From Mytilus edulis (taxonomy: Eukaryota), in NCBI RefSeq assembly GCF_963676685.1, contig NC_092346.1, forward strand, positions 18,848,001 to 18,912,000: DNA of 64,000 bases, written 5' to 3'. The notes under the pieces are model-generated. The model did not search any database and was not told the origin of the DNA. It saw nothing but the letters and a program-made list of their open reading frames with translations. Position numbers and translations under genes: made by a program. Below, piece after piece: positions 28,925 through 54,849 of the stretch (position 1 is its first letter; the number at the start of each line of letters is the position of its first letter).

Positions 28925-31084
28925 ATATTTAAAAAAAAAAAAAACGTCTGGAGTGTGAGCATAAACACAATCATTTTTTCATGAACAGATGAACCAGTTA
29001 TTTAAAAAAAAAACAACAAAAAAACAACGTAGCAAAGCATAAAATTCCCAAAACAGAAGCTTCGGACTGACACATCAGACTTCCTGACAACAATACAACT
29101 CAATGCTGTCACAGCTTAAATTCAATAGATATAAACGCATATAAAGAATAACAGAAATAACAAACACATAATTGAATATTTAAACTGACAAAACTTACTA
29201 TACTTCTTCCAACTAAAATCTGCGAAAAAAAGACATATTAACAAAAGGTACAGTGGCAAATATACCACATCTTCTTATTTTCATAAAGACAAAATAGAAC
29301 GAACAATACTGATCCAGAAAGCCTAAATGTGTATAACGTAGTTGGGGTAAACCAGTTTAAAGTGTGCGCAAAATGCCTACGTTAACTATATAAAAATGTA
29401 TCCAGAATGATGATATATTTGACCTAAGAACAACCATATTATCATTCTGAGAATGTGAAATATTTGATCTGCTGTTAGCCGCATCAGCATAAACGGCAAA
29501 TGTTGGCGGTTTGAACATTTGGACACGATACAAGAATTTTGTTTTTGGCCCAATGAGTTATCGTGGAAAGCAGTTAATGAAACGTTCTTAATTCACATTT
29601 TTGTACCTTTATATAAACTCTTATGGTCAAGAGGCAAGATGGTACTAATCTGATGTTTTACATGGCACCAATTTGGTAAGCTTTCCTGGTTTTCTTCTCA
29701 TGATAGTTTTTGCTTGTATCTTTTTTTTTCTTCAAAATAAATCATTAAAATAGAGACTTGAAGTATAATTTCCTCTTCACAGCAAATGAGCATTCCTCTT
29801 TCGTAATGAATTAGCAATGTAAAGAAATCTTAAGCTTTCAATTTGGGGATAAACTAGTAATTTCTCACGGTTAGTCTGACCGTAGCGCTCAAGCTGGTGA
29901 TTTGAAGTGCCGCGTTCGTTAAAACATCTTTATAATTCAAGCAGGTTTTTTCATTAGCATGGATCACATTTATAACACTTCTTAAGACATCTATTGTAAG
30001 GATATTCATCATGGTCTGTCGACAGTTGCTCGCTTTCTCTTCTCGGGTCAGACACGTTCAGGTGCAGCGTGTAAACCACTCCATCTTTTGGCAGATTTAA
30101 AACCTATTTTAAAACGCAAATTCTCAATGAAAGAATGGTTTCGATTTAATATTCCCTTTTTTCCCGTTTTAACAGATGGGTTGTTGAACTTAAGTTTTCA
30201 TTTAACGTTGTAAAACAAGAGCCATCAGTTCTCTAATTATTGCCGTATTTTGTTTTCTGGTCAGAAATCATTAAATAATCAGGAAAGAACATGCTAAAAT
30301 AACGTTCAAATTAAATCACTCCTTCATTGTTACAACACTCTAAATAGGATTAAGATTAAATTGAGCAGAAATGATTGCTTTATTTAGCATGAAATCAAAT
30401 CTGTGCGCCTCAGCGCACCAAGTGAAAACACTACCATCTTGTGGACGTATAGCGGCTTGTTCTCGCTGTGAAATAGACGAAAACTCTTGTTAAATTAATC
30501 GGAGGGAAACATGGGCGAGTTTTATTAAGTTTTTATTGAATATCATTTCATAAAACATGATCTTATAAGTGACTTTATACCTCAATCACATATCCCGTTA
30601 TATTATAAGTTACAGTTACAAAAGTGATCAGTAAAGGGAAAGACATTCACCTCCCTAAATTGAATAGTGTGTTTTTCCCTCAAATTTTCTGTGGTAATTT
30701 TATATAGACAAAACATAATTTGACTTTTAAGAGGCAAAGTTTCATGAATAAAAAAAATTGAAACAAAATGTGCTTTATAGTATTTTCCAATCCACAAAAA
30801 AAAAACACACAACATTTCGTCGTGTGAATATTACAATGGTGTATGTCCATTTTTTTCATAAATTGACTTATTGGTACTACTTGCATCCTCGTGTAATGAT
30901 CTATCTCCCTATACTTCTATATCTCTGAATCTTGCCCCATTTAGGCCTTAAAAAATACTCTTAGAATGATGTATCTCCACATCTTTAATATTTGAAAAAG
31001 TTATACTGATCTATGTTTTATCCAATGAAAATGTTTGAATTCTGGTCATATGACACAAGCTAGCAAATGGAAAAAGTTTGAAGC

Positions 31085-32138
31085 ATGACAGAAAAGTAAG
31101 TTATATTTTAGCTTTGTAATTCAATTATTTTTCTTAAAATCATTCTAATAATGAATTTATATTGTTTAAATGTGTATTAACTTTGTGATATAAACATATT
31201 TCTGAAGAAGGAAAAAGAGATTAAAGTATAAAGCATGATATATGGAGATACAACATTTTAAAACTTTCTTTTTTCAAGTTAATTTGGAGATACAACATTT
31301 TAAGACTTCCTTTTTTCAAGTTAATTTGGAGATACATCATTATAATCTTTTTTCTTGCACAAAAACACCAATTAAGAAATGATTATACATTTTGATCATT
31401 TACAGGGATGACTGTCATTTGCTGCCAATCTTGAACCTACCCGACGTTCCTCTGATAAGGATATTTTTCTTCTTAGATCTAGAAGATCTCGTGCTTGTAG
31501 TAAATAGGGTTTGTAAAAGATTTTACCACCTAATTAAATCAACACCTGTCTTGTGGAGAGTATTTGAATTTTATTGGCCTCAAGTTATAAAAGAAGAAGA
31601 CTTACCCTACATATTTAGACACTCAAAGAGCTTCAGAGTTTTCAATATTGGATATTGTACCTACTCAGGCCGTCTGTCTGTGTTTGATTATAGTTTCATT
31701 TCAAGTTTGAGCTGTGCAAGAAAACTCACATGGTTGAATTTAACTAGAACTTCAATATCAAGCACATGCTTTTTACAGTACCTTCCAAATCTTGAAATTC
31801 TTGATCTTTCAGAGTGTGAAAATCTGATTGACTGTGATTTTCATGTAGTATCTCAGTGTCATAAACTTCAAAACTTATATCTTTCGTTTGATAAAGTAAA
31901 CCCAAAGACAATCAAAGATATTGTTTCCTGTATACCTCAATTAGAAATTCTAGATATAAGTGGTATATTTTTGAAATTTTTTGAAGTGACATCAATTCTT
32001 GATCAGTGTTACTGGACACTTATGTCTATATACCTTAGTGTTGATTCATCTGTGAATGAAGAGGACTTACACAGGGAGATACACTTTAATTACACAGACC
32101 TTTCCTATCACATATATACACCAATATTTAATAATTAA
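31085..32138 (+). CDS. F-box/leucine-rich-repeat protein (FBXL-like), spliced: exon 1 31085..31095, exon 2 31406..32138, 247 aa
   Basis: F-box LNLPDVPLIRIFFFLDLEDLVLVVNRVCKRFYHLIKSTPVLWR followed by LRRs (LTWLNLTRTSI, LPNLEILDLSECENL, LQNLYLSFDKV, IPQLEILDISGI). ATG ACA GAA AA|gtaagt (donor 31096) joins in frame to tttacag|G GAT GAC (acceptor 31405), giving MTEKDDCHLLPILNLP. An in-frame TGA precedes this ATG. Confidence 0.85.
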
Positions 32139-32140
32139 CA

Positions 32141-34345
32141 ATGGATCCTAATAACTATAATATTGAGGAGATTTGTACAGTATCCAATGATCAAGAATTA
32201 GCTTCTATAATTCAAAACACTGATGACAATTGTACTATTATAATAGTCGATGAAAATAACAATTTTCAGTTTACAGATTCAACTGTAAACAATATATTTG
32301 AAACCAATTTAAATGAAAGTTTTGATTTAAATGAGGAACATAGCACGGAACATATTTATGCAAATGTACAGATTCTAAATCCTACAACCAGTTCTACATG
32401 TTCTAATGAATTGCAAAATGATTCAACTGATAATTTTATATATACTGGAGTAGCATTACCTAATGAAAACAAAACCATAGCTTCAAGAAATGCGGAAGAA
32501 ATTGATGAAGACCCAAGTCATCAAGGTGAAGGTAATGGCAATAATACAACAAGGAAACAAAATGTAAAAAATACAGAAGAGCAAAATGAAGACACAATAG
32601 AAGAACAAAACGTAGAGACAAATGAAAATGATGAAACGATGAGGGGTAGAAAAAGGAAAAGACAATCGGAATTATGGAAACAAAATCTAAGGAAAAGAAG
32701 ACGGCAGTCGGGTATGGAATATGTAAATACTAGAGGTAAAACACAGCGAAAGAGAGAAGTTAAACAAGGAACAAAGGACTGTAAAGGTGGATGCAGGTTT
32801 AAATGCAGTAAAAATATATCAGAAACAGAAAGGAACGCGATTTTTAAAACTTTTTGGTCATATAGCGATTCTGAAAAAAATGCATTTTATGGAAATAATA
32901 TTGAAAAGTTAAAGAAAGAAAGGAAGCGAACAAACAAAGAAATTTCAAGAAAACAATTTACATATAAATATCATTTACCTAAGGAGTGTAGTAAACTCCG
33001 TATTTGTAAAGAGTTTTTTCTTTCAACCTTAGATATAAGTGGCCGTAGGATTCAATGGTTTTTTGATAAAAAGTCTCCACAGTTTGAGGACAAAAGGGGA
33101 AGACATGTTAAGAGGAAAATATCAGATGAGTCTAAAGATAGAATCAGAAACCATATCAATTCATTTCCTCGAATGGACTCCCACTATTGTAGGTCTTCTG
33201 TAAAAAGACAATATCTTGATCCTTGTTTGTCGATAGCAAAAATGTATGAGCTTTATGTTTTAACATGTAATACAACAGATGTTACTCCAGAAAAATATCA
33301 TACATACAAAAACATATTTAATTTTGAATTTAATTTGGGTTTCCACACTCCCAAGAAAGACAGATGTGACCATTGTGAGGAGTACAAATCCAATAAATTG
33401 ATCAATCAAGTTGGTGAAGATTTGAAAATGAAGTATGAACTACACATAGCTGGAAAATCTAATACCAAAGTGGAAAGAGATAACGACAGAAGTTCCGACA
33501 AGGCAGTTCTTTGCTTTGACATGGAAAATGTTATAACCTGTCCAAGGGCAAATATTTCAATTTTTTTTTACAAAAGAAAATTGAATGTGTTCAACTTAAC
33601 TGGACATTTCTCGTTAAATAAATGTGCTTATAATGCAATTTGGCCAGAACATATAGCAGGCAGAGGTGCCAATGAAATTTCGAGTGCCTTATTAAAAATT
33701 TTAGAAAAAGTGCTAGAAGATTTTCCTTCTTTAGAAACCATAACGTTATGGTCGGACTCTTGCATACCCCAGAATCGTAACTCTATAGTTATTAGTGCAC
33801 TGCAGCATTTTATGAGAAGTGACAGATCATATTCACTTAAGTCTGTAGAACAAAAATTTTCTGAGCCAGGCCACTCGTCTATTCAAGAGGTTGACTGTGT
33901 ACACAGTCACATTGAGAAAGCATTGAATCTCAGCGAGATTTTTAGTCCTGTCAGTTTTTTGCGAATTCTGACAAAAGTTCGTAAAAGATCAATGAAAGTG
34001 ATTCAATTACAGCCTGAACACTTCTTTGATTTTCAGACAGCTAGTCGGACATTTAAATATAACTCTGTGCCCTTTACTAAGATTAAGTATTTAAAGTTAG
34101 AAGTTGAGAAGCCGTTACACGTTTTGTATAAGGTATCATTTTCTGATGAGAGTTTCAAAGAGGTTTCCATTGTTGTACAGAATACAAGAAAAAAACAGAA
34201 AACTGTTGTCATGCCAAAAGTTAATATGTTGACCAAATCAAACTTGTTGTCAAAAGAAAAAGTCAAAGATTTGAAAGATATGTTAAAGTATATGCCCCTT
34301 GATGACAGAAAGTATTATGAGACAGTTTTCAAGAGTTACAAGTAA
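32141..34345 (+). CDS. Sola1-like DDD transposase, 734 aa
   Basis: Motifs HINSFPRMDSHYCR, FNLGFHTPKKDRCDHC, CFDMENV (first Asp), YKRKLNVFNL, GRGANEISS, WSDSCIPQNRN (second Asp), GHSSIQEVDCVHSHIEK (third Asp). Acidic/Asn-rich N-terminus, basic NLS-like stretch RGRKRKR. Lies between the TIRs. Confidence 0.88.
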   Translation: MDPNNYNIEEICTVSNDQELASIIQNTDDNCTIIIVDENNNFQFTDSTVNNIFETNLNESFDLNEEHSTEHIYANVQILNPTTSSTCSNELQNDSTDNFIYTGVALPNENKTIASRNAEEIDEDPSHQGEGNGNNTTRKQNVKNTEEQNEDTIEEQNVETNENDETMRGRKRKRQSELWKQNLRKRRRQSGMEYVNTRGKTQRKREVKQGTKDCKGGCRFKCSKNISETERNAIFKTFWSYSDSEKNAFYGNNIEKLKKERKRTNKEISRKQFTYKYHLPKECSKLRICKEFFLSTLDISGRRIQWFFDKKSPQFEDKRGRHVKRKISDESKDRIRNHINSFPRMDSHYCRSSVKRQYLDPCLSIAKMYELYVLTCNTTDVTPEKYHTYKNIFNFEFNLGFHTPKKDRCDHCEEYKSNKLINQVGEDLKMKYELHIAGKSNTKVERDNDRSSDKAVLCFDMENVITCPRANISIFFYKRKLNVFNLTGHFSLNKCAYNAIWPEHIAGRGANEISSALLKILEKVLEDFPSLETITLWSDSCIPQNRNSIVISALQHFMRSDRSYSLKSVEQKFSEPGHSSIQEVDCVHSHIEKALNLSEIFSPVSFLRILTKVRKRSMKVIQLQPEHFFDFQTASRTFKYNSVPFTKIKYLKLEVEKPLHVLYKVSFSDESFKEVSIVVQNTRKKQKTVVMPKVNMLTKSNLLSKEKVKDLKDMLKYMPLDDRKYYETVFKSYK

Positions 34346-34497
34346 GCTTCAAGACGTTGACTCATTATTGATCACTATTGCATTGTCAGACAGTGTAGGA
34401 TGTTATCAGAATTATGGTCTGAAGGGACTTAAAGGATGCTGGACCTTTACATCTTAAATGTTATTTGTGTTTCATTTTTTGTTAAAAAAAAGTTTTG

Positions 34498-35035
34498 AAA
34501 AGAATTCAAAATTCTCATTCACTGGGTTGACTGTTAAATACTTTTTAGTTTTGAGAACTTATATTGAGTTGTTACATTGAATAAACCAACTGTTTGTGGT
34601 TATTGTTTTTTATATACCATTTGTTATTTGTTTATGCTAAATATACAAGAAGTATTTCTTTTATTTATTTTTGCCAATATCTTTCACAATTATGCTTTGT
34701 ATCTTGTATTGAAACAATTTTGTTTTGCGTTCAAATAACAGATTCTATCTTTATGACTTAACGTTTTCCAAAAGAATTCAAAATGCTCATTCACTGGGTT
34801 GACGGTTAAATGAGTTTTAGTTCTGAGAACTTATTGAGATGCTACATTGAATAAACCAAATGTTTGTGATTATTGTTTTTTATATATCACAAATTTTGTC
34901 ATTTGCTTTGCTAAATATACAAGAAGTATTTCTTTAATTTATTTTTGCCAATAATATCTTTCACGATTATGCTTTGTATTTCGTATTGAAACAATTTTGT
35001 TGTGCGTTCAAATTAAAGATTACTTAATGTTTTCC
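34498..35035 (+). repeat. ~270-bp tandem duplication in the 3' region of the transposon
   Basis: AAAAGAATTCAAAAT(T/G)CTCATTCACTGGGTTGAC starts at both 34498 and 34770 and the units stay collinear. Each unit contains an AATAAA (~34580, ~34850). Confidence 0.9.
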
Positions 35036-37042
35036 AGTTAATCATCATTATTGACAAATAATAGTGTCAGGAATAAACGATGATAAAACATATACATTAA
35101 AAATTATATTTTGTAATCCTTTAAAATCTTTTTCCTAATGCATTCATAGTTTATTGGTTTAATGTTATACTGTTTCAAGTCCAGTACCATTTTAATTGTT
35201 GTAAAATATGTGACCAAAAAGATAAAATTGTTCTATCTCCAAATAATTTTTTGTCTTTTTTATTTAAACGGAGTGTGTTTGTTATTATCGGTAACAATAA
35301 AACATCAACATTCATCAATTTGAAATACAAAAAGAATGTATCATCGTTCTTTCATTGCTCCTTGGTAGAAAAACAAGTTATCACTTTTTCAGATGGAGTT
35401 ATCTCCATTTTCAAAAATATGGACATAGACCACTATTAGATTCACACGACGATTTGTTCATTCCGTTCTAATGTCCTTGCAATCAGGAGTACAACATATA
35501 GAGATCAAAACCAAAGAAACATGGCCCAATAAAGCGGGTTTTATTCTCATTATGATATCTTTCAATATTCAATTTTATCTTGTCTTCTTATATATATTTT
35601 GTATTGTGAAATAAATATTGGCATTGAAATTCACTCCAATTTCAAGTTATTTAATATTGTTGACTATTACCACAATAAACAAGCTGTATGTTGACAATGT
35701 AATACCTTTTCATGTGCGGTCCTTTTGTCCGCCATGTTTGCTTACAAGTGGAGCAGAAAAGAACGGTAAACACATTCTACATCAAGTCGATATACTCTCA
35801 CAATTAAAGTTACCAGACTTGTCATGTAATGAGAAGACTATGTAAATATTCGTCATTATACAGAGAAAAAAAAACATGTTCTACATCCCGTAAGCGTTCT
35901 TCTTCAAGTCGACATGAAATAAACATTTGCATATCAATTTTTTCCTAACTCAGTTCAAATACACTCAATTCTATTTGCTTGAATAGGTCAATAAGAAAAA
36001 GGAAAATAATATTTAATTTTGTGTACATATTAAAAATTACATTAAATATCATGATACGAAACAAGTAACTACAATTACATTCATATCCGTCAGTCATATT
36101 ATAATAATGCACAACACACTTGAGTGTATAAGTAGTTAAAAATATGTGTTAGAATTATAAAAAAAAATATTGATGTATATTTTTGTATATATTTACTTAA
36201 AATTTGACAAATTCTTAACGAGGGAAGATACTTAAGGTAGAATTCCAAGTTCTTTTTGTATCAAACAAAAATGATATTTGAAGATTGCGCCTTCGGTTGG
36301 CTTTAATCTTGTTGACAGCTTTAATTACTTTATTGCTGAAATAAACGAATAATAAACAATCTGCGACGGTGTGGAGTTTTTTCTTTGCATCACGAAATGG
36401 TTTGTGGAAAGTTTGTCAACACGAATAAATCTTGCTGAGGAGTATCTCTATTCCTTTATGGCGGCGACGAGAATTCTTTAGATCTCATTATCTGGTGTTG
36501 TTAACAGTGTGATTGATGCTCAACTAAACTGTTTAATTAAATTTAAATATTTCTGCAGATTAAACGCCAACCAAAACAGAAATTAAAGCCAAAGCGTTAT
36601 TGTCTCATTATTGGAATTAATCAGGATTTTATTAAAATATAAATATCTACAAGAGTTTTTATCCTCCGCCGGCCATTCTGTTCTATATAAAACCATTTCA
36701 GCCATTTGATTAATATGGTGTCTGCATTATAAAAATCCCCAATGTAAATATGTGAAAACTGTCCGATAAGCACTGCAATATGCATTACAGATCGAGGAAT
36801 AATTTTTATGTTTGTTTTCTGATGAAATACTACGAGCTTTAGGAAAACAATTATGATATAAATTCGTGACACGTGCTATGCAAAATCATGGACGTTGTGT
36901 TGTAACAGTAAATTTGTCCAATAACAAAAACAGTTGCTTTAGGACCATGTGGCAAAATTAGGTCCAGATTGTCTAATCTTGATTTAGACTATTGATATGC
37001 ATTTGCCTCTAATTTTCGAAATCTATATAAAAAAAAAGATCA

Positions 37043-38580: not shown

Positions 38581-39800
38581 AAACAAATTGGTACTTTGAG
38601 AATAAACAGTGTTTTCCCTGGTGACTTGTACAGCCTAATAAAGATGGCTTTTGACGATCTTCACTCCAGATTGTATACATGTATTTACACTATGTTCACG
38701 ATTTTATTTGAACAATTCTCTTAATAGTATGACTTATTGTATAGAAAATTTATATTATATTTAAATAGACAGTTGTGAATAAAAAGGATTTAAGTTTTTT
38801 TTCTCGGGTTTCTCGTTTTTCTATTCAATACGAGCCGCCGTTTACTTGAATGGAGAACATCGTTTTACAATTATTATTTGTGTTCACGTACAAGAAAATT
38901 TTGTAAAGATCATATGGAATACTTCAAACTCAATAATTACTTTTCTTAAATCATAAATGTATACCTATTTTAAAACGAGGCGTGGTGGTAAAAATTAAAG
39001 GTATAGCCTGCCTACAGTTTTGAGCTATTGAAGTTGACAAATTGAGCCTTACAATATAATTCTATCGGGCTTTTGATCTCCTGCCACCGAAAAAAACTCA
39101 ATGTAAAAAAAATTATGAAAAATAAGGTCAAAATCAATACAGGGCTGATATCTGTGATATAATGCACCCGAGAGGGCGGACCGCATTAAACACCTGCACG
39201 TAGAAGTACCTCGGATATTGAATATATCGGTTCTCTTTTCTCTGACGTTTCAATTAACCACTTCAACTGTATTTTGCTCAAATTGCAAAATTCATAATTC
39301 ATTTGATCTTGTCAACTGGATTGAAAATGATTTTTTATTCAGGGTCTAAGCGGTATTGATAATAATTGTCCTTTAGTGACATATTAACTGTTATTTTTAA
39401 TTAAGCTTTCGTTTTACCGATGTAATATTCAAAGGGTTTATTTTAGGATGGTTGAAATTGAACTGAATATCTAGAAATGTTTTTTTTTGTATTGATAGTA
39501 AGAGAAAAGGTGGAGTAATTGAATATGTCTTAAATCGAAATGCGACTATTGAAAAACTATGAAATTATTAAAAAAAATTAGGAAGATACCCTTGAACTTA
39601 AAAAAACATTGTCGAAGAAAGACAACAAAATAATGACATTGAAAAATAAATCGTGAACACCATGAACCCCACCTAAAACCGTCGGACTCGGGTTCTCCTG
39701 AAGGGTTTTCGATTCCAAATTCATAAGTGACACTAAAAACAACCTGAGCCTTATCTATCGCAATAATCTTGAAACAGTAGACACTTTTAGACCCGTTAAT

Positions 39801-40170
39801 TATTTAAGAATTGAATGCTTCTTTTTGTAAATTTATTGGGGTGTAAAAGCGTTGACCGAAGTACATTTTGTATGAAGCGCGGAAGCGCTTCATTCTAAAA
39901 ATGTACGCACGGTCAACGCTTTTACAACCCTATAAAGTTACAAAAAGAAGCATTCAATACTTATAATTACATTTTTTAGCTATGATCACGAAAACACGAA
40001 TTTTATATATTTTATTATTTAATTCACCTGTGCACTTTATTGTTGGAGCACGTGTTATCATGAATGAAAAGTTGTATTGAGCATTTCAAATGCTTACGGA
40101 ATAACACGTGATGTGCAGTTAGCCAATCAGAATAAAATATTATAATGAAACATACATCTAATGTAATTAT
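39801..40170 (+). mobile_element. Non-autonomous element with a ~165-bp terminal hairpin
   Basis: Arms TTGAATGCTTCTTTTTGTAA...TTACAAAAAGAAGCATTCAA centred on GAAGCGCGGAAGCGCTTC, then a ~200-bp tail with CCAATCAG. TAATTATTTAAG occurs at both ends (39797-39808, 40164-40175). A second copy is at 51601. Confidence 0.85.
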
Positions 40171-42530: not shown

Positions 42531-43358
42531 TTATATTATTTGTTTGTGCGTTCTCTGAGATGAATGTTCTTGAGTGTGTTTTTGGTGTATTTCTGTCACG
42601 TAGTGTGCCATTTTAGCGACATTTCTTAACAATATCATCAAGCAGGAGGTTTGGTTAGCGATTAAACCTGGTCCAACCCATCATTTTGTTCTTAAAATGA
42701 CCTGTACCAAGTCAGAAATATGGCAGTTGTTATCTAATAGGTTGTTTCTATATATATATATATATATATGCTGGTTTTTGTTTTTGTTGCACTCCAGTGT
42801 TCCTGTTGTTCTTTGTTTTCCTCTTACAGTTGATGAGTTTCCCTCGGTTTTAGTTTGTAATCGGATTTGTTTTCTATTAATCGATTTATGACTTTTGAGC
42901 ACCGGTATGCAGCTGTAGCCTTGGCTGTAGAGAGATATAAGAACCCCTTGAAACATATCATTTTCTAATGTTTCAGTTTTATTTACATCATTTCAATAAA
43001 AGGTAGATTAAGAAATTTCGTATGATATTATTTTAAAATGTATACAGAAACGTTTCTGCATAATAAAGAATTTAATATATTTTTTTTTATATCAGGTCAG
43101 GGTATTTGTAAGCAAGATACAAGTTATAAAATGTACATTCCATTAAAAAAAATATACATGGTATGCTCAACAATGGAAGTTTGTTATGAGAAAGTAGAAA
43201 TCGTTTCCTTTGTCGTATGTTTCAATTTCCCCATTCTGTAACAATACAGTTTCATGTGCAAAACAGACATTTGACGATTTTTATAAGCCTTATACAGCCT
43301 TTTATATATAGCTGACTATGTGGTATGGGCTTTGCTAATTGCTGACCAATAGCTGTTA

Positions 43359-43798
43359 GAATGAAATTCAAAACAGTGTGGCTGTGGCCATTGATTGACA
43401 CATTAAATTCATCCATTGACTGGGACAATTTAGGTGAACGTTTGTATGTAACGACCACTGCTCACTATGTACTTTTAAAGACACTTAAACTATGGGGTCA
43501 CCAAAGGTTCTCAACACCTTAATAAAGTAATTCGAAAAATTAATCAGAAATAACACGATGTTTTGATTTATATGAATTATAAATCAAAACATAAAGGTTA
43601 TTCCTGATTAATTTTTCGAATTATTTTATAATTAAAGGCGTTAAGAAACCTTTGGTGACCCCACAGTTTAAATGTCTATCGTAGGTACGTCGTGAACAAT
43701 GGTCGTTACAGACAAACGTTCACGTAAACTGTCCCAGTCAATGGATGAATTTAATGTGTCAATCAATGGCCACAGCCATACTGTTTTGAATTTCATTC
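43359..43798. mobile_element. Fold-back MITE, nearly palindromic over its length, TA-flanked
   Basis: ~105-bp TIR GAATGAAATTCAAAACAGT(G/A)TGGCTGTGGCCATTGATTGACAC..., inner inverted repeat GGGGTCACCAAAGGTT...AACCTTTGGTGACCCC, TA at 43357-43358 and 43799-43800. Confidence 0.9.
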
Positions 43799-44813
43799 TA
43801 TTTCTGTGTCATTTTGTCTCATGTGGAGAGTTGTCCCATTGGCAACGATATCCCTTTCTTTTTACATTTCAATATGTTCAATAAAGTGAAAATCAAACGC
43901 ACATGGTGTGCTTGGAGCAAGTCAGGTTATTTGAACCGTGTGTTGTTTGTTGTTGTCTACCTTTGCTTCTGTGTAAAATTAAGAAGATGTGATACGATAT
44001 GAAAAAACATATTTACATGCACCAGAGACCAAATGAGGCAGTAGTTAAGTAATTGTAGGTACCGTAAGACCTTCAACAATGATCAATACCCGTACCGATT
44101 ATAATAATTCAGCGGTTGTTGCTACATATTTTTTTATTGTTGTTTTGTACATAAATCAAGCCGTTAGGTTTCTTGTTTGAATTGTATTACCGTGATTTGT
44201 CATTTTTGCATTTTATGGCTTGCTATGTTGTATTAGTTTTGCTCACAATTGAGGACCATACGGTGACATTCAAAAGTTTAGGAAAACCTGGCATTCTACG
44301 TTGATTGTTCTCTGAGGGAGAGGTGTATCATTGGCAATCATACCACATCTTATTTTCATAGTGGCATATTAGAATGTTAGTGTCAAGCTATCTTGGCAGT
44401 GTTTGTAGTTTTGCATTAAATGTTTTAAGATATTTGAAGCCCTAATTGAAAATCGTAACACAAAATTCCCTAAAAATATACGAAGACTAAATGCATCACG
44501 AAAATGTATATAAAGAATATTATAAGGTAGATTTATAATACCATTAGATTATCGAATTCAAGTGGCCGAACTGAATAATTCTATTTAAGTAACTGTGAAC
44601 ACATATTATTCCATATTGGTATTATTTTAGTAGGTTTCTCTATATGAATTGGATTTTGAATAAAAAAGTATATTCACCTGAGAAAGTGTTATTCACCGCG
44701 CTAAACGTCACGCGCTTTTACATGCAACGTTATGGTAAAATGTTTCATCTAAAAAAAAAAATGGTATATGTTTGTCATTAGATACATTTTCTTCTCTCGG
44801 ACTATGGAATACA

Positions 44814-51600: not shown

Positions 51601-51960
51601 AATAATTACATTAGATGTATGTTTCATAATTCTGATTGGCTAACTGCACATCACGTGTTATTCCGTAAGCAATTGCAATGCTCAATAAACTTTTCATTCA
51701 TGATAACACGTGGTCCCACAATAAATTGCACAGGTGAATTAAATAAAACAATAATAAAATTCGTATTTTCATGATCATTGCTAAAAAAATGTAATTATAA
51801 GTATTGAATGCTTCTTTTTGTAACTTCATAGGGTTGTAAAAGCGTTGACCGTGCGCACATTTTTAGTATGAAGCGCTTCCACGCTTCATACAAAATGTAC
51901 TTCGGTCAACGCTTTTACACCACAATGAAGTTACAAAAAGAAGCATTCAATTCTTAAATA
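51601..51960 (-). mobile_element. Second copy of the terminal-hairpin element
   Basis: Reverse complement of 39801-40170. Absent from the paralogous site near 50590. Confidence 0.85.
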
Positions 51961-52023
51961 AAATCCGATTTAGAAAATAAGGATCAATGAATGAAAATAA
52001 CTTGCAAAATAACGTTGAGTTAA

Positions 52024-52654: not shown

Positions 52655-53005
52655 TTATAAGTATATATTACACATAAAATTCATAAGTTTTGATTTAGAT
52701 AAACGGTTACAAAAAGATATTGATTCACAGAATTTTTTTTTATTTGATGGAGGAGCAATCTTGATTTTTGATGCAAATCATATCTTTTTCTAATTTCCCG
52801 TAATCGAGTGGCACAGTGCCTTCTTCGAAGAATAATACACCTATCACACGATAATAACCCTAGTCACCGGAAAATGTGAAATTAATCTGCTGTTCTTTTT
52901 TAAACTGTCATTAGAACAAAGAGCAGAAGCAGCTTAAGATTTTTCATTTTTGTTTTATATATATTTCTTGATTGTATTATTATGATTCATTGATATATCT
53001 AAATG

Positions 53006-53448
53006 GAATGAAATTCAAAACAGTGTGGCTGTGGCCATTGATTGACACATTAAATTCATCCATTGACTGGGACAATTTACGTGAACGTTTGTCTGTAACG
53101 ACCACTGATCACGACGTACCTACGATAGACATTTAAACTGTGGGGTCACCAAAGGTTTCTTAACGCCTTTAATTATAAAATAATTCGAAAAATTAATCAG
53201 GAAGAACCTTTATGTTTTGATTTATATAATTGATATAAATCAAAACATCGTGTTATTTCTGATTAATTTTTCGAATTACTTTATTAAGGTATGGAGAACC
53301 TTTGGTGACCCCATAGTTTAAGTGTCTTTAAAAAGTACATAGTGAGCAGTGGTCGTTACATACAAACGTTCACCTAAATTGTCCCAGTCAATGGATGAAT
53401 TTAATGTGTCAATCAATGGCCACAGCCACACTATTATGAATTTCATTC
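53006..53448. mobile_element. Second copy of the fold-back MITE, opposite orientation
   Basis: Near-identical reverse complement of 43359-43798 with unrelated flanks. Confidence 0.9.
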
Positions 53449-54849
53449 TAAAGGTAAGTGTAGTATACCGCTGTTCGAAAGTCATAAATATGTATATATA
53501 AAACACCATTTCATTGAGGAGGAACAGTACTTTATTTCACTAGTTTTAAAAGAAAAACTAAATTTATAATGCATACATGCATTATAAATAAACATTGCAA
53601 ATTTTAATATTAATTATGTAAAATTGTAAATGTGTCTTTAAAGACTTTCAGAAATATTTTTACGACTGATGCATATATTACAAATGTTTTCATTGTTTTA
53701 TTTGCTATTTTCTGTGAATCGTATTATATAGTATATACAACAAACGAATGTTTGTATGTGTTGAACTCAATTTTATTTGATTTTATCATATTATCATATC
53801 ATAAAATTGAAAACACTTGTTCTCGATCGAGCTTTTTTTCTGTTTTGAAGTAAAAGTGATATTCGCTATTTTTCATACAACCTCTTGGTTAGTCCTAAAG
53901 GTAAAGACTTGTCACTTTACTATTATTCATACTCTATACATGACCTGTCAACACTCTTTGCACTTACTTTCAAATACAGAGTATCTTTCAAAGAATTAGG
54001 CCTTATTCCTTAATATCACGGGCTGGTCCTCCATGACCTGCTATAGTCTTTTCCTGAACACCAATCAAATATTTCCATTTTCGGTTAAATTGTATTGTTT
54101 GGTCTGACTTTCTGAAGTAGACACAGGAGTTTTCATATCCATGTGCCCTCACCGGTAACCACTTCTTGCTGATTTTTTTTCATTTTTTTAAGTATTCAAA
54201 TTAGAAAAACTTGATCAAAATTATTTGAAATTTTGATTTGTTAAAACCACACCTCCAAGACAAAAAGAAAATACATGTGTAATCAGCGTATTTTATATAT
54301 ATATCTTTATTGTTCATGGCTTATGTGAAATAAAACGGATCATACATTTGTCAAGCTTTGATGTAATACACATATATGCACTCTTGTCTAGACTTTATAA
54401 TGTTATAAGAAACAATTACATGTAGCACACGACTTCCTGGTAGAGTTGTTAAATATACTTGTAAAAGTCAAATGTCAAAGTGGATACCGTATATTAATTT
54501 TATGTAAAAGTATATATCAATATATAGGACCATGCGTATTTGATATCAAGGAAAATATGATTTTGAAGAAGCTTTCATTCATGCTTTGGTATTTGTAACA
54601 CTTATGTCTACTAGTATATTGTTAAAAATCTTGGAACACAATCGGGAGTTCTGACAATTAACTTTTATATACTTTTAAATGTCAATATTATTGTTATGCA
54701 AATAATGTATGCAAAATTCATTCTGTAATATATATTAAAATTTTTTTTTAAAAGCCTTTTATATCTTTTATATTATGTTATAGTATACGTACACGGTAAA
54801 TAACTATAAATAAACTCATCATATATACCAGGATCGAAATTATGAATTT

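Follow-up and report, generated by a model that had tools for sequence, protein, structure and literature searches.

An F-box/LRR gene abuts the transposase gene of a Sola1-type DNA transposon in Mytilus, with a short stop-start spacing kept among lineages

In LINE-1, the ORF2 enzyme is made from a bicistronic messenger RNA (mRNA) after a long open reading frame (ORF), reportedly with no conserved signal; LINE-1 is a retroelement whose inter-ORF spacer measures tens of bases and whose ORF1 product is an RNA chaperone. The motif of the TURBS, a site for ribosome binding that lies upstream of termination, reads UGGGA and is complementary to 18S. Reinitiation after long ORFs is described for stops and starts within ~20-30 nucleotides (nt) of each other, AUGA overlaps included, with an efficiency of 3-20% in viral cases (PMC10275272). 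The named cases are viruses, the retrotransposon SART1, in which ORF1 and ORF2 are coupled, and candidate human downstream ORFs (PMC10275272). Known cargo of Sola elements comprises a ParB-methyltransferase gene on the opposite strand in Sola1-1_Ec32 (PMC12477816) and, in Sola2, Fanzor1 (PMC3627910). The locus described here lies in a 64,000-nt stretch of the Mytilus edulis genome (the window; RefSeq assembly GCF_963676685.1, contig NC_092346.1, positions 18,848,001 to 18,912,000, forward strand). At window positions 30818-35451 this stretch holds a 4,634-bp DNA transposon filed as Sola1-type, with terminal inverted repeats (TIRs) and an ATTT duplication, in which a gene for an F-box protein with leucine-rich repeats (LRRs) runs up to the transposase gene.

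The window element shares with LINE-1 an enzyme encoded by the second ORF behind a long one, and differs in that ORF1 of LINE-1 is not an E3 receptor. Like SART1, it is a mobile element in which the ORF of the enzyme comes second and directly follows a long one. SART1, however, is a retroelement that requires RNA structure downstream of the stop (PMC10275272), whereas in the window element, a DNA transposon, the first gene is spliced and no shared structure was found. The TURBS-dependent caliciviruses and influenza B are alike in having stop and start within 20 nt and AUGA overlaps (PMC10275272). The window element differs from them in that its mRNA would be nuclear and that UGGGA is absent from the 150 nt before the stop in 7/7 sequences.

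The F-box ORF terminates with TAA at 32136-32138, the two bases CA follow at 32139-32140, and the transposase ATG lies at 32141 in a different frame; the junction claimed in the original prediction is confirmed on the window sequence. That prediction had also proposed the conservation of the stop-start spacing in related elements as a check, and the spacing is kept short in spite of synonymous divergence that has reached or come close to saturation. Seven lineages were resolved, from this genome itself and from the 3 of 80 metagenome loci that have an F-box match. The spacer measures +2 in the window and in the copies on contigs C8 and C1, -4 as ATGA in C2a and C11a, and +24 in C7a; the metagenome loci have +3 (L066), +2 (L076) and -4, again as ATGA (L143). 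Stop and start are thus at most 5 nt apart in five of the seven lineages and at most 25 nt apart in six, which places these six within the range of ~20-30 nt described for reinitiation after long ORFs. C2b, in which the homologous stop reads GAG, 25 nt from the ATG, was counted with C7a. The count leaves out C7b, which has no intact ATG, C11c and C11d, where the stop leads into other sequence, and F-box fragments that have no transposase nearby. A purine occupies position -3 of the transposase ATG in all seven lineages.

The F-box proteins are 28-65% identical among six lineages and occupy several branches of the tree. The proportion of synonymous differences (pS) is 0.68-0.91 in all six between-lineage comparisons and saturated in five, against a nonsynonymous proportion (pN) of 0.16-0.39, these ranges covering both genes; exon 2 of the F-box gene compared with a sister family gives pN 0.16 and pS 0.83. 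Both the F-box and the transposase genes are under purifying selection. The parts neighbouring the junction vary by 190-480 nt: the intron spans 236-426 nt among six elements, the transposase N-terminus 333-777 nt (five of six measured), and the 3' region 1,106-1,584 nt (four of six measured). Because these lengths vary, the element is not simply compact. As far as the sequences tell, the spacer has been changed several times by small indels yet has remained short. A homologous F-box running directly into a transposase N-terminus is found in Tegillarca gene model P0240, known from the protein model alone. No F-box match was found at the other 77 of the 80 metagenome loci; many of these are short, and the majority are apparently relatives that lack the gene. 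An F-box alignment against metagenome contigs gave loci in 0 of 280 stretches, and a transposase alignment against viral contigs in 0 of 16.

Translation from a bicistronic mRNA by termination and reinitiation is the reading that best fits these sequences, and we hold it to be moderately probable. A single promoter near the left end of the element would likely drive one spliced mRNA that spans both ORFs and is polyadenylated past the transposase. Ribosomes finishing the F-box ORF would restart at the adjacent ATG with low efficiency, and the transposase would then be made only along with the F-box protein and at a lower level. The F-box protein may target a host silencing or defence factor, a guess based on the presence of related genes on transposons of three unrelated types. 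Among the readings considered, a spacer that has to remain short is predicted by coupling alone. The closeness of the two genes is not forced by the cargo, since 1,096 nt separate a related F-box gene from the transposase in an integrase-core element. Leaky scanning was rejected in view of the 6-17 ATGs in the F-box region, and trans-splicing because the -4 overlap leaves no space between the ORFs. A prediction of the complex of F-box protein and transposase returned no answer (score 0.01) and was used neither way.

RNA was looked up in 8 of 23 listed runs, all of them contigs of guessed type, none recorded as RNA. In contigs, transcript starts, ends and strand are unreadable, one contig is not one molecule, and rare forms are dropped. 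Coverage was the ranking criterion for the runs and favours host read-through or DNA; uncovered stretches were not used as evidence. No GT-AG joint inside the element, including its own splice of exon 1 to exon 2, was found in the 8 runs, and four listed joints were rejected as splices because they are not GT-AG. A contig of run X4 begins at the acceptor of the F-box intron with 28 foreign letters, 25 of which match one place in this genome on contig C4 (L166:1501-1527), where the sequence continues with AG and then GTATTT, a donor. The contig is a host exon spliced onto the element acceptor at 31405, and it crosses the junction unspliced, reaching 33546. The acceptor works, and RNA can traverse the junction unspliced. 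The join places a stop right after it, so that in that individual the element works as a gene trap.

Several observations weigh against termination-reinitiation. The element's own splice is missing from the runs, most of which cover the TIRs plus flanks, a pattern expected of host read-through RNA or of DNA, and the X4 transcript is host-driven and derives from a copy with two frameshifting insertions in the transposase. The lineages share ancestry and are hence not independent events. In the decayed lineage C11b the spacer is +68 or +83, with an ATG inside, and L066 has out-of-frame ATGs at -11 and -7. Besides the missing UGGGA, no folded RNA window shared near the stop was found: z is below -2 in 2 of 54 windows, at different places, with values of -1.7 and -2.2 at +50 in two lineages and of -3.1 at +150 in the window only. 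Extra elements are usually required for ribosomes to reinitiate behind a long ORF (PMC10275272). AATAAA occurs 441-519 nt past the F-box stop in three lineages and could end a monocistronic F-box mRNA. In the window, the AATAAA motifs at 34580 and 34850 follow the transposase as originally claimed, but they are not the first, as two more lie inside its coding sequence (33392 and 33617). The first 1,250 nt past the F-box stop contain none, an absence within chance (for the first 1,200 nt, 0 observed vs 1.12 expected, P 0.2), and depletion of the motif within the transposase ORF is not significant in 3/3. The bicistronic mRNA with termination-reinitiation put forward in the original prediction, which would keep transposase low, is partly supported: the conserved spacing agrees with it; the element's own spliced mRNA was unseen in the eight runs, and no reinitiation signal was found. 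The Sola1-type identity and exon 1 of the F-box gene with its intron go beyond that prediction.

A second promoter within the F-box coding exon, giving rise to a monocistronic transposase mRNA with the end of the F-box ORF as its 5' untranslated region, appears unlikely. It needs ordinary eukaryotic translation only, and it agrees with the good start context of the transposase in all seven lineages, with the AATAAA 441-519 nt into the transposase ORF in three of six lineages, which could end a separate F-box mRNA, and with the element's own transcripts being unseen in the 8 runs. Such a promoter alone, however, would not hold the spacer within a few bases. No CCAAT motif pair occupies a shared place in the F-box exon among six lineages, the pair being kept only upstream of exon 1, and L066 and L076 have no CCAAT-type motif whatever in the exon (a comparison of low power). 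Synonymous divergence shows no dip at the F-box 3' end (last-bin pS 0.55-0.73 and 0.79-0.88, likewise with low power).

Alternative splicing, either from exon 1 to an acceptor near the transposase start or from a donor in the F-box exon to the transposase, which would yield a fusion, is quite unlikely. An AG at -43 in the window, with a score of 11 on our own crude scale, would leave a 15-codon upstream ORF (uORF) before the transposase ATG, and the database gene models P0142, P0122 and P0240 fuse both ORFs on a basis that they do not state. The true acceptors, however, score 14-16, against a maximum of 11 for the alternative candidates: the best acceptors without an intervening ATG score 11, 6, 10, none, 6 and 6 in six lineages and lie at unrelated places. 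The N-terminal motif past the transposase ATG is moreover conserved among relatives, and a GT-AG joint within the element is absent from the eight runs, in whose contigs rare forms are dropped.

Very unlikely is an inherited compactness without function, the transposase being made from host read-through transcripts or chance promoters. All RNA-like coverage takes in the TIRs and flanks, the one proven transcript is host-driven, and one lineage has drifted to 68-83 nt, as such an account would allow. Against it, the spacer is still short after several changes by small indels, whereas the parts next to it changed by 190-480 nt, and the promoter-like motif and the intron phase are conserved. Stop read-through or -1 frameshifting to an F-box-transposase fusion, in the manner of gag-pol, is highly improbable. 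In its favour, the two ORFs stand in the -1 relation in four of the six lineages, in frame in two and in +1 in none. Two different modes of recoding would be required, however, and every lineage retains its own transposase ATG. Upstream of that ATG, three of the -1 lineages have the transposase frame closed after 2, 4 and 4 codons and the fourth, L076, after 18; no slippery heptamer was seen by eye. A weak search for longer fused proteins gave 5 unrelated LRR proteins.

The exons of the F-box gene (Table 1) join in frame to encode a 247-aa protein, and Mytilus coruscus gene model P0122 (NCBI) has the same start, MTEKD. Of the six lineages tested, five have the intron in phase 2; the remaining copy has a frameshift further down. 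An F-box-like Pfam match (E 6e-9, above the cut-off) is followed by LRRs, the order of FBXL proteins. The protein model has a predicted local distance difference test (pLDDT) score of 96, and its best fold match in the PDB is SKP2 (E 1.6e-8, 21% identity). The protein is predicted to be a substrate receptor of the SCF (SKP1-cullin-F-box) ubiquitin ligase. It is like SKP2 and the FBXL proteins in the predicted F-box and LRR fold, and differs from them in belonging to a compact family of 230-250 aa that rides on transposons; 78 representatives are found at E up to 1e-30, a few of which are long LRR proteins. Upstream of the donor, a CCAAT is found at 74-110 nt in 6/6 lineages, and a TCA(C/T)ATG / TGACAT-like word lies 21-24 nt past a CCAAT in 6/6, L143 using a farther CCAAT (-200). 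In three lineages (L066:2074, L076:612, L143:4712) the intron interrupts the start codon (AT|G); unspliced RNA there reads ATG TAA, and the protein would thus come from spliced RNA only. Two short uORFs of 12 and 4 codons (31050-31088) precede the F-box ATG in the window, the longer overlapping it via ATGA, and a 4-codon uORF is present in C2a too. These uORFs may lie upstream of the transcription start.

The DDD triad is a mark of Sola transposases, and the RNase H-type transposase of the window element has one in D460, D539 and D585, invariant across 83 aligned relatives. Sola1 features are a 4-bp AWWT-type target duplication and short TIRs (PMC3845634). The window element has ATTT on both sides and 34-nt TIRs, and an inner TIR word, TGGTGTAnGTCCATTTT, is common to it and an insect Sola1 TIR in a comparison by eye (PMC3845634 Table 1). 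AWWT duplications are reported for some Sola2 elements too (PMC3627910). From the AWWT duplication, the inner TIR word and the DDD triad the element is filed as Sola1-type, an assignment made from sequence features. Its 4,634 bp are close to the mean of 5.4 kb for bivalve Sola1 (PMC10294476), and it differs from Sola1 in the same-strand F-box/LRR gene upstream, abutting the transposase. Elsewhere the duplication is ACTT on both sides in C2a, matched and not AWWT, AATT at the right end of the C8 copy, and mismatched between the sides in C7a and L076.

The C8 copy is 99.4% identical and lacks its 5' part, and near-identical transposases carry the names Mytilus galloprovincialis and M. edulis. 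Public-run contigs from other individuals diverge from the window at both element ends (on the left at 30810-30817). These different flanks point to polymorphic and recent insertions. The target may be longer than 4 bp, AC-ATTT-GT (30812-30817, 35452-35457), with C8 and runs X3, X4, X5 and X8 matching through GT, which suggests a target preference for ACAWWTGT. The word TAT(G/C)TCC / GGAGATA recurs at both ends (30840-31340, 35390-35430), three times in the intron, and in relatives too; these words are candidate transposase binding sites. A GC-richer stretch at 30390-30520, ~300 nt left of the element, has by eye the look of a host promoter. Elsewhere in the window lie two pairs of long inverted repeats 9-12 kb apart that resemble miniature inverted-repeat transposable elements (39800-40133 / 51629-51961 and 43356-43803 / 53001-53451).

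Table 1. Coordinates of the window element, its genes and related F-box-carrying elements
Feature	Position	Strand	Remarks
Left target-site duplication ATTT (AWWT type)	30814..30817	.	same 4 bases at 35452-35455
Left TIR, starts CGTCG	30818..30851	+	28/34 bases match right end
Likely promoter core: CCAAT and, ~24 nt downstream, TCA(C/T)ATG / TGACAT-like word	31022..31056	+	putative function
F-box gene, exon 1, coding part, ATG ACA GAA AA	31085..31095	+	in frame with exon 2
F-box gene, phase-2 GT-AG intron, 310 nt	31096..31405	+	acceptor 31405 used in RNA (run X4)
F-box gene, exon 2, F-box and LRRs, stop TAA 32136-32138	31406..32138	+	Pfam PF12937, PF00646
Two-base spacer CA, stop-to-start gap	32139..32140	+	identical in C8 and C1 copies
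Transposase ORF, intronless, 734 aa, RNase H-type	32141..34345	+	D460/D539/D585
3' non-coding tandem duplication, ~275 nt x2	34489..35021	+	AATAAA in each unit (34580, 34850)
Right TIR	35418..35451	-	C8 copy stops at same place, then AATT
Right target-site duplication ATTT	35452..35455	.	matches left duplication
Integrase-core element copy	L157:3273-6288 (C1)		further F-box matches in L054-L064
Harbinger-type element	L160:2191-9011 (C11)		copies L158, L159, L195-L197

The fold matches of the transposase model are weak (IstA, TnsB and integrases, E 6e-4 and above), and a sister transposase protein, P0002, matches DUF7869. In a more distant transposase relative (L028:499-3204, L030), the place of the F-box gene is taken by a short ORF, Cys-rich and PHD-like, which lies ~260 nt upstream of the transposase and on its strand.

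Related F-box/LRR genes, 23-30% identical, are carried by two other multi-copy elements of this genome. In an integrase-core element (PF24764) of at least 8.8 kb, which we take to be IS481EU-like, 1,096 nt separate the F-box/LRR stop from the transposase ATG downstream; identity among the three copies that were compared is 99%. In a Harbinger-type element, of which six copies are 96-99% identical, the Myb/SANT ORF shares its strand with the F-box/LRR ORF, and the DDE_Tnp_4 transposase lies on the opposite strand. As this cargo is common to unrelated transposases, it more likely targets a host protein than the element's own transposase. The broadest interpretation is tentative and rather unlikely as a whole. 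In it, a clade of bivalve Sola1 transposons would be a true eukaryotic operon: a single spliced mRNA would give an SCF receptor bringing about the destruction of a host silencing factor and, through reinitiation without TURBS, transposase in a small amount coupled to it, and the F-box family would have been acquired by three unrelated types of DNA transposon as their common counter-defence.

Sola elements with other cargo are already known. Neither Sola elements carrying an F-box gene nor eukaryotic DNA transposons with coupled translation turned up in the literature searched, which took in no Repbase entries, subscription papers or supplements; Repbase and supplements may already record such elements. 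The portions available of an IS481EU paper (PMC10045372) and of a bivalve survey (PMC10294476) do not mention F-box genes, those of PMC5009743, PMC5751038 and PMC9587614 hold nothing on an F-box-transposase junction, and for Drosophila telomeric elements short F-box fragments only are described in the corresponding portion of PMC13534243.

Two long proteins from one animal nuclear mRNA are rare, and, if the coupling is true, a cut-and-paste transposon adds a class to such cases. Gene predictors fuse or split these ORFs, and such pairs are therefore hidden in current annotations. The natural spacer variants (-4 to +24) would make the rules of signal-free reinitiation directly testable. If the reading holds, the amount of transposase made would be linked to a ubiquitin-ligase receptor that the element itself carries and whose gene is a candidate for anti-silencing in animal DNA transposons.

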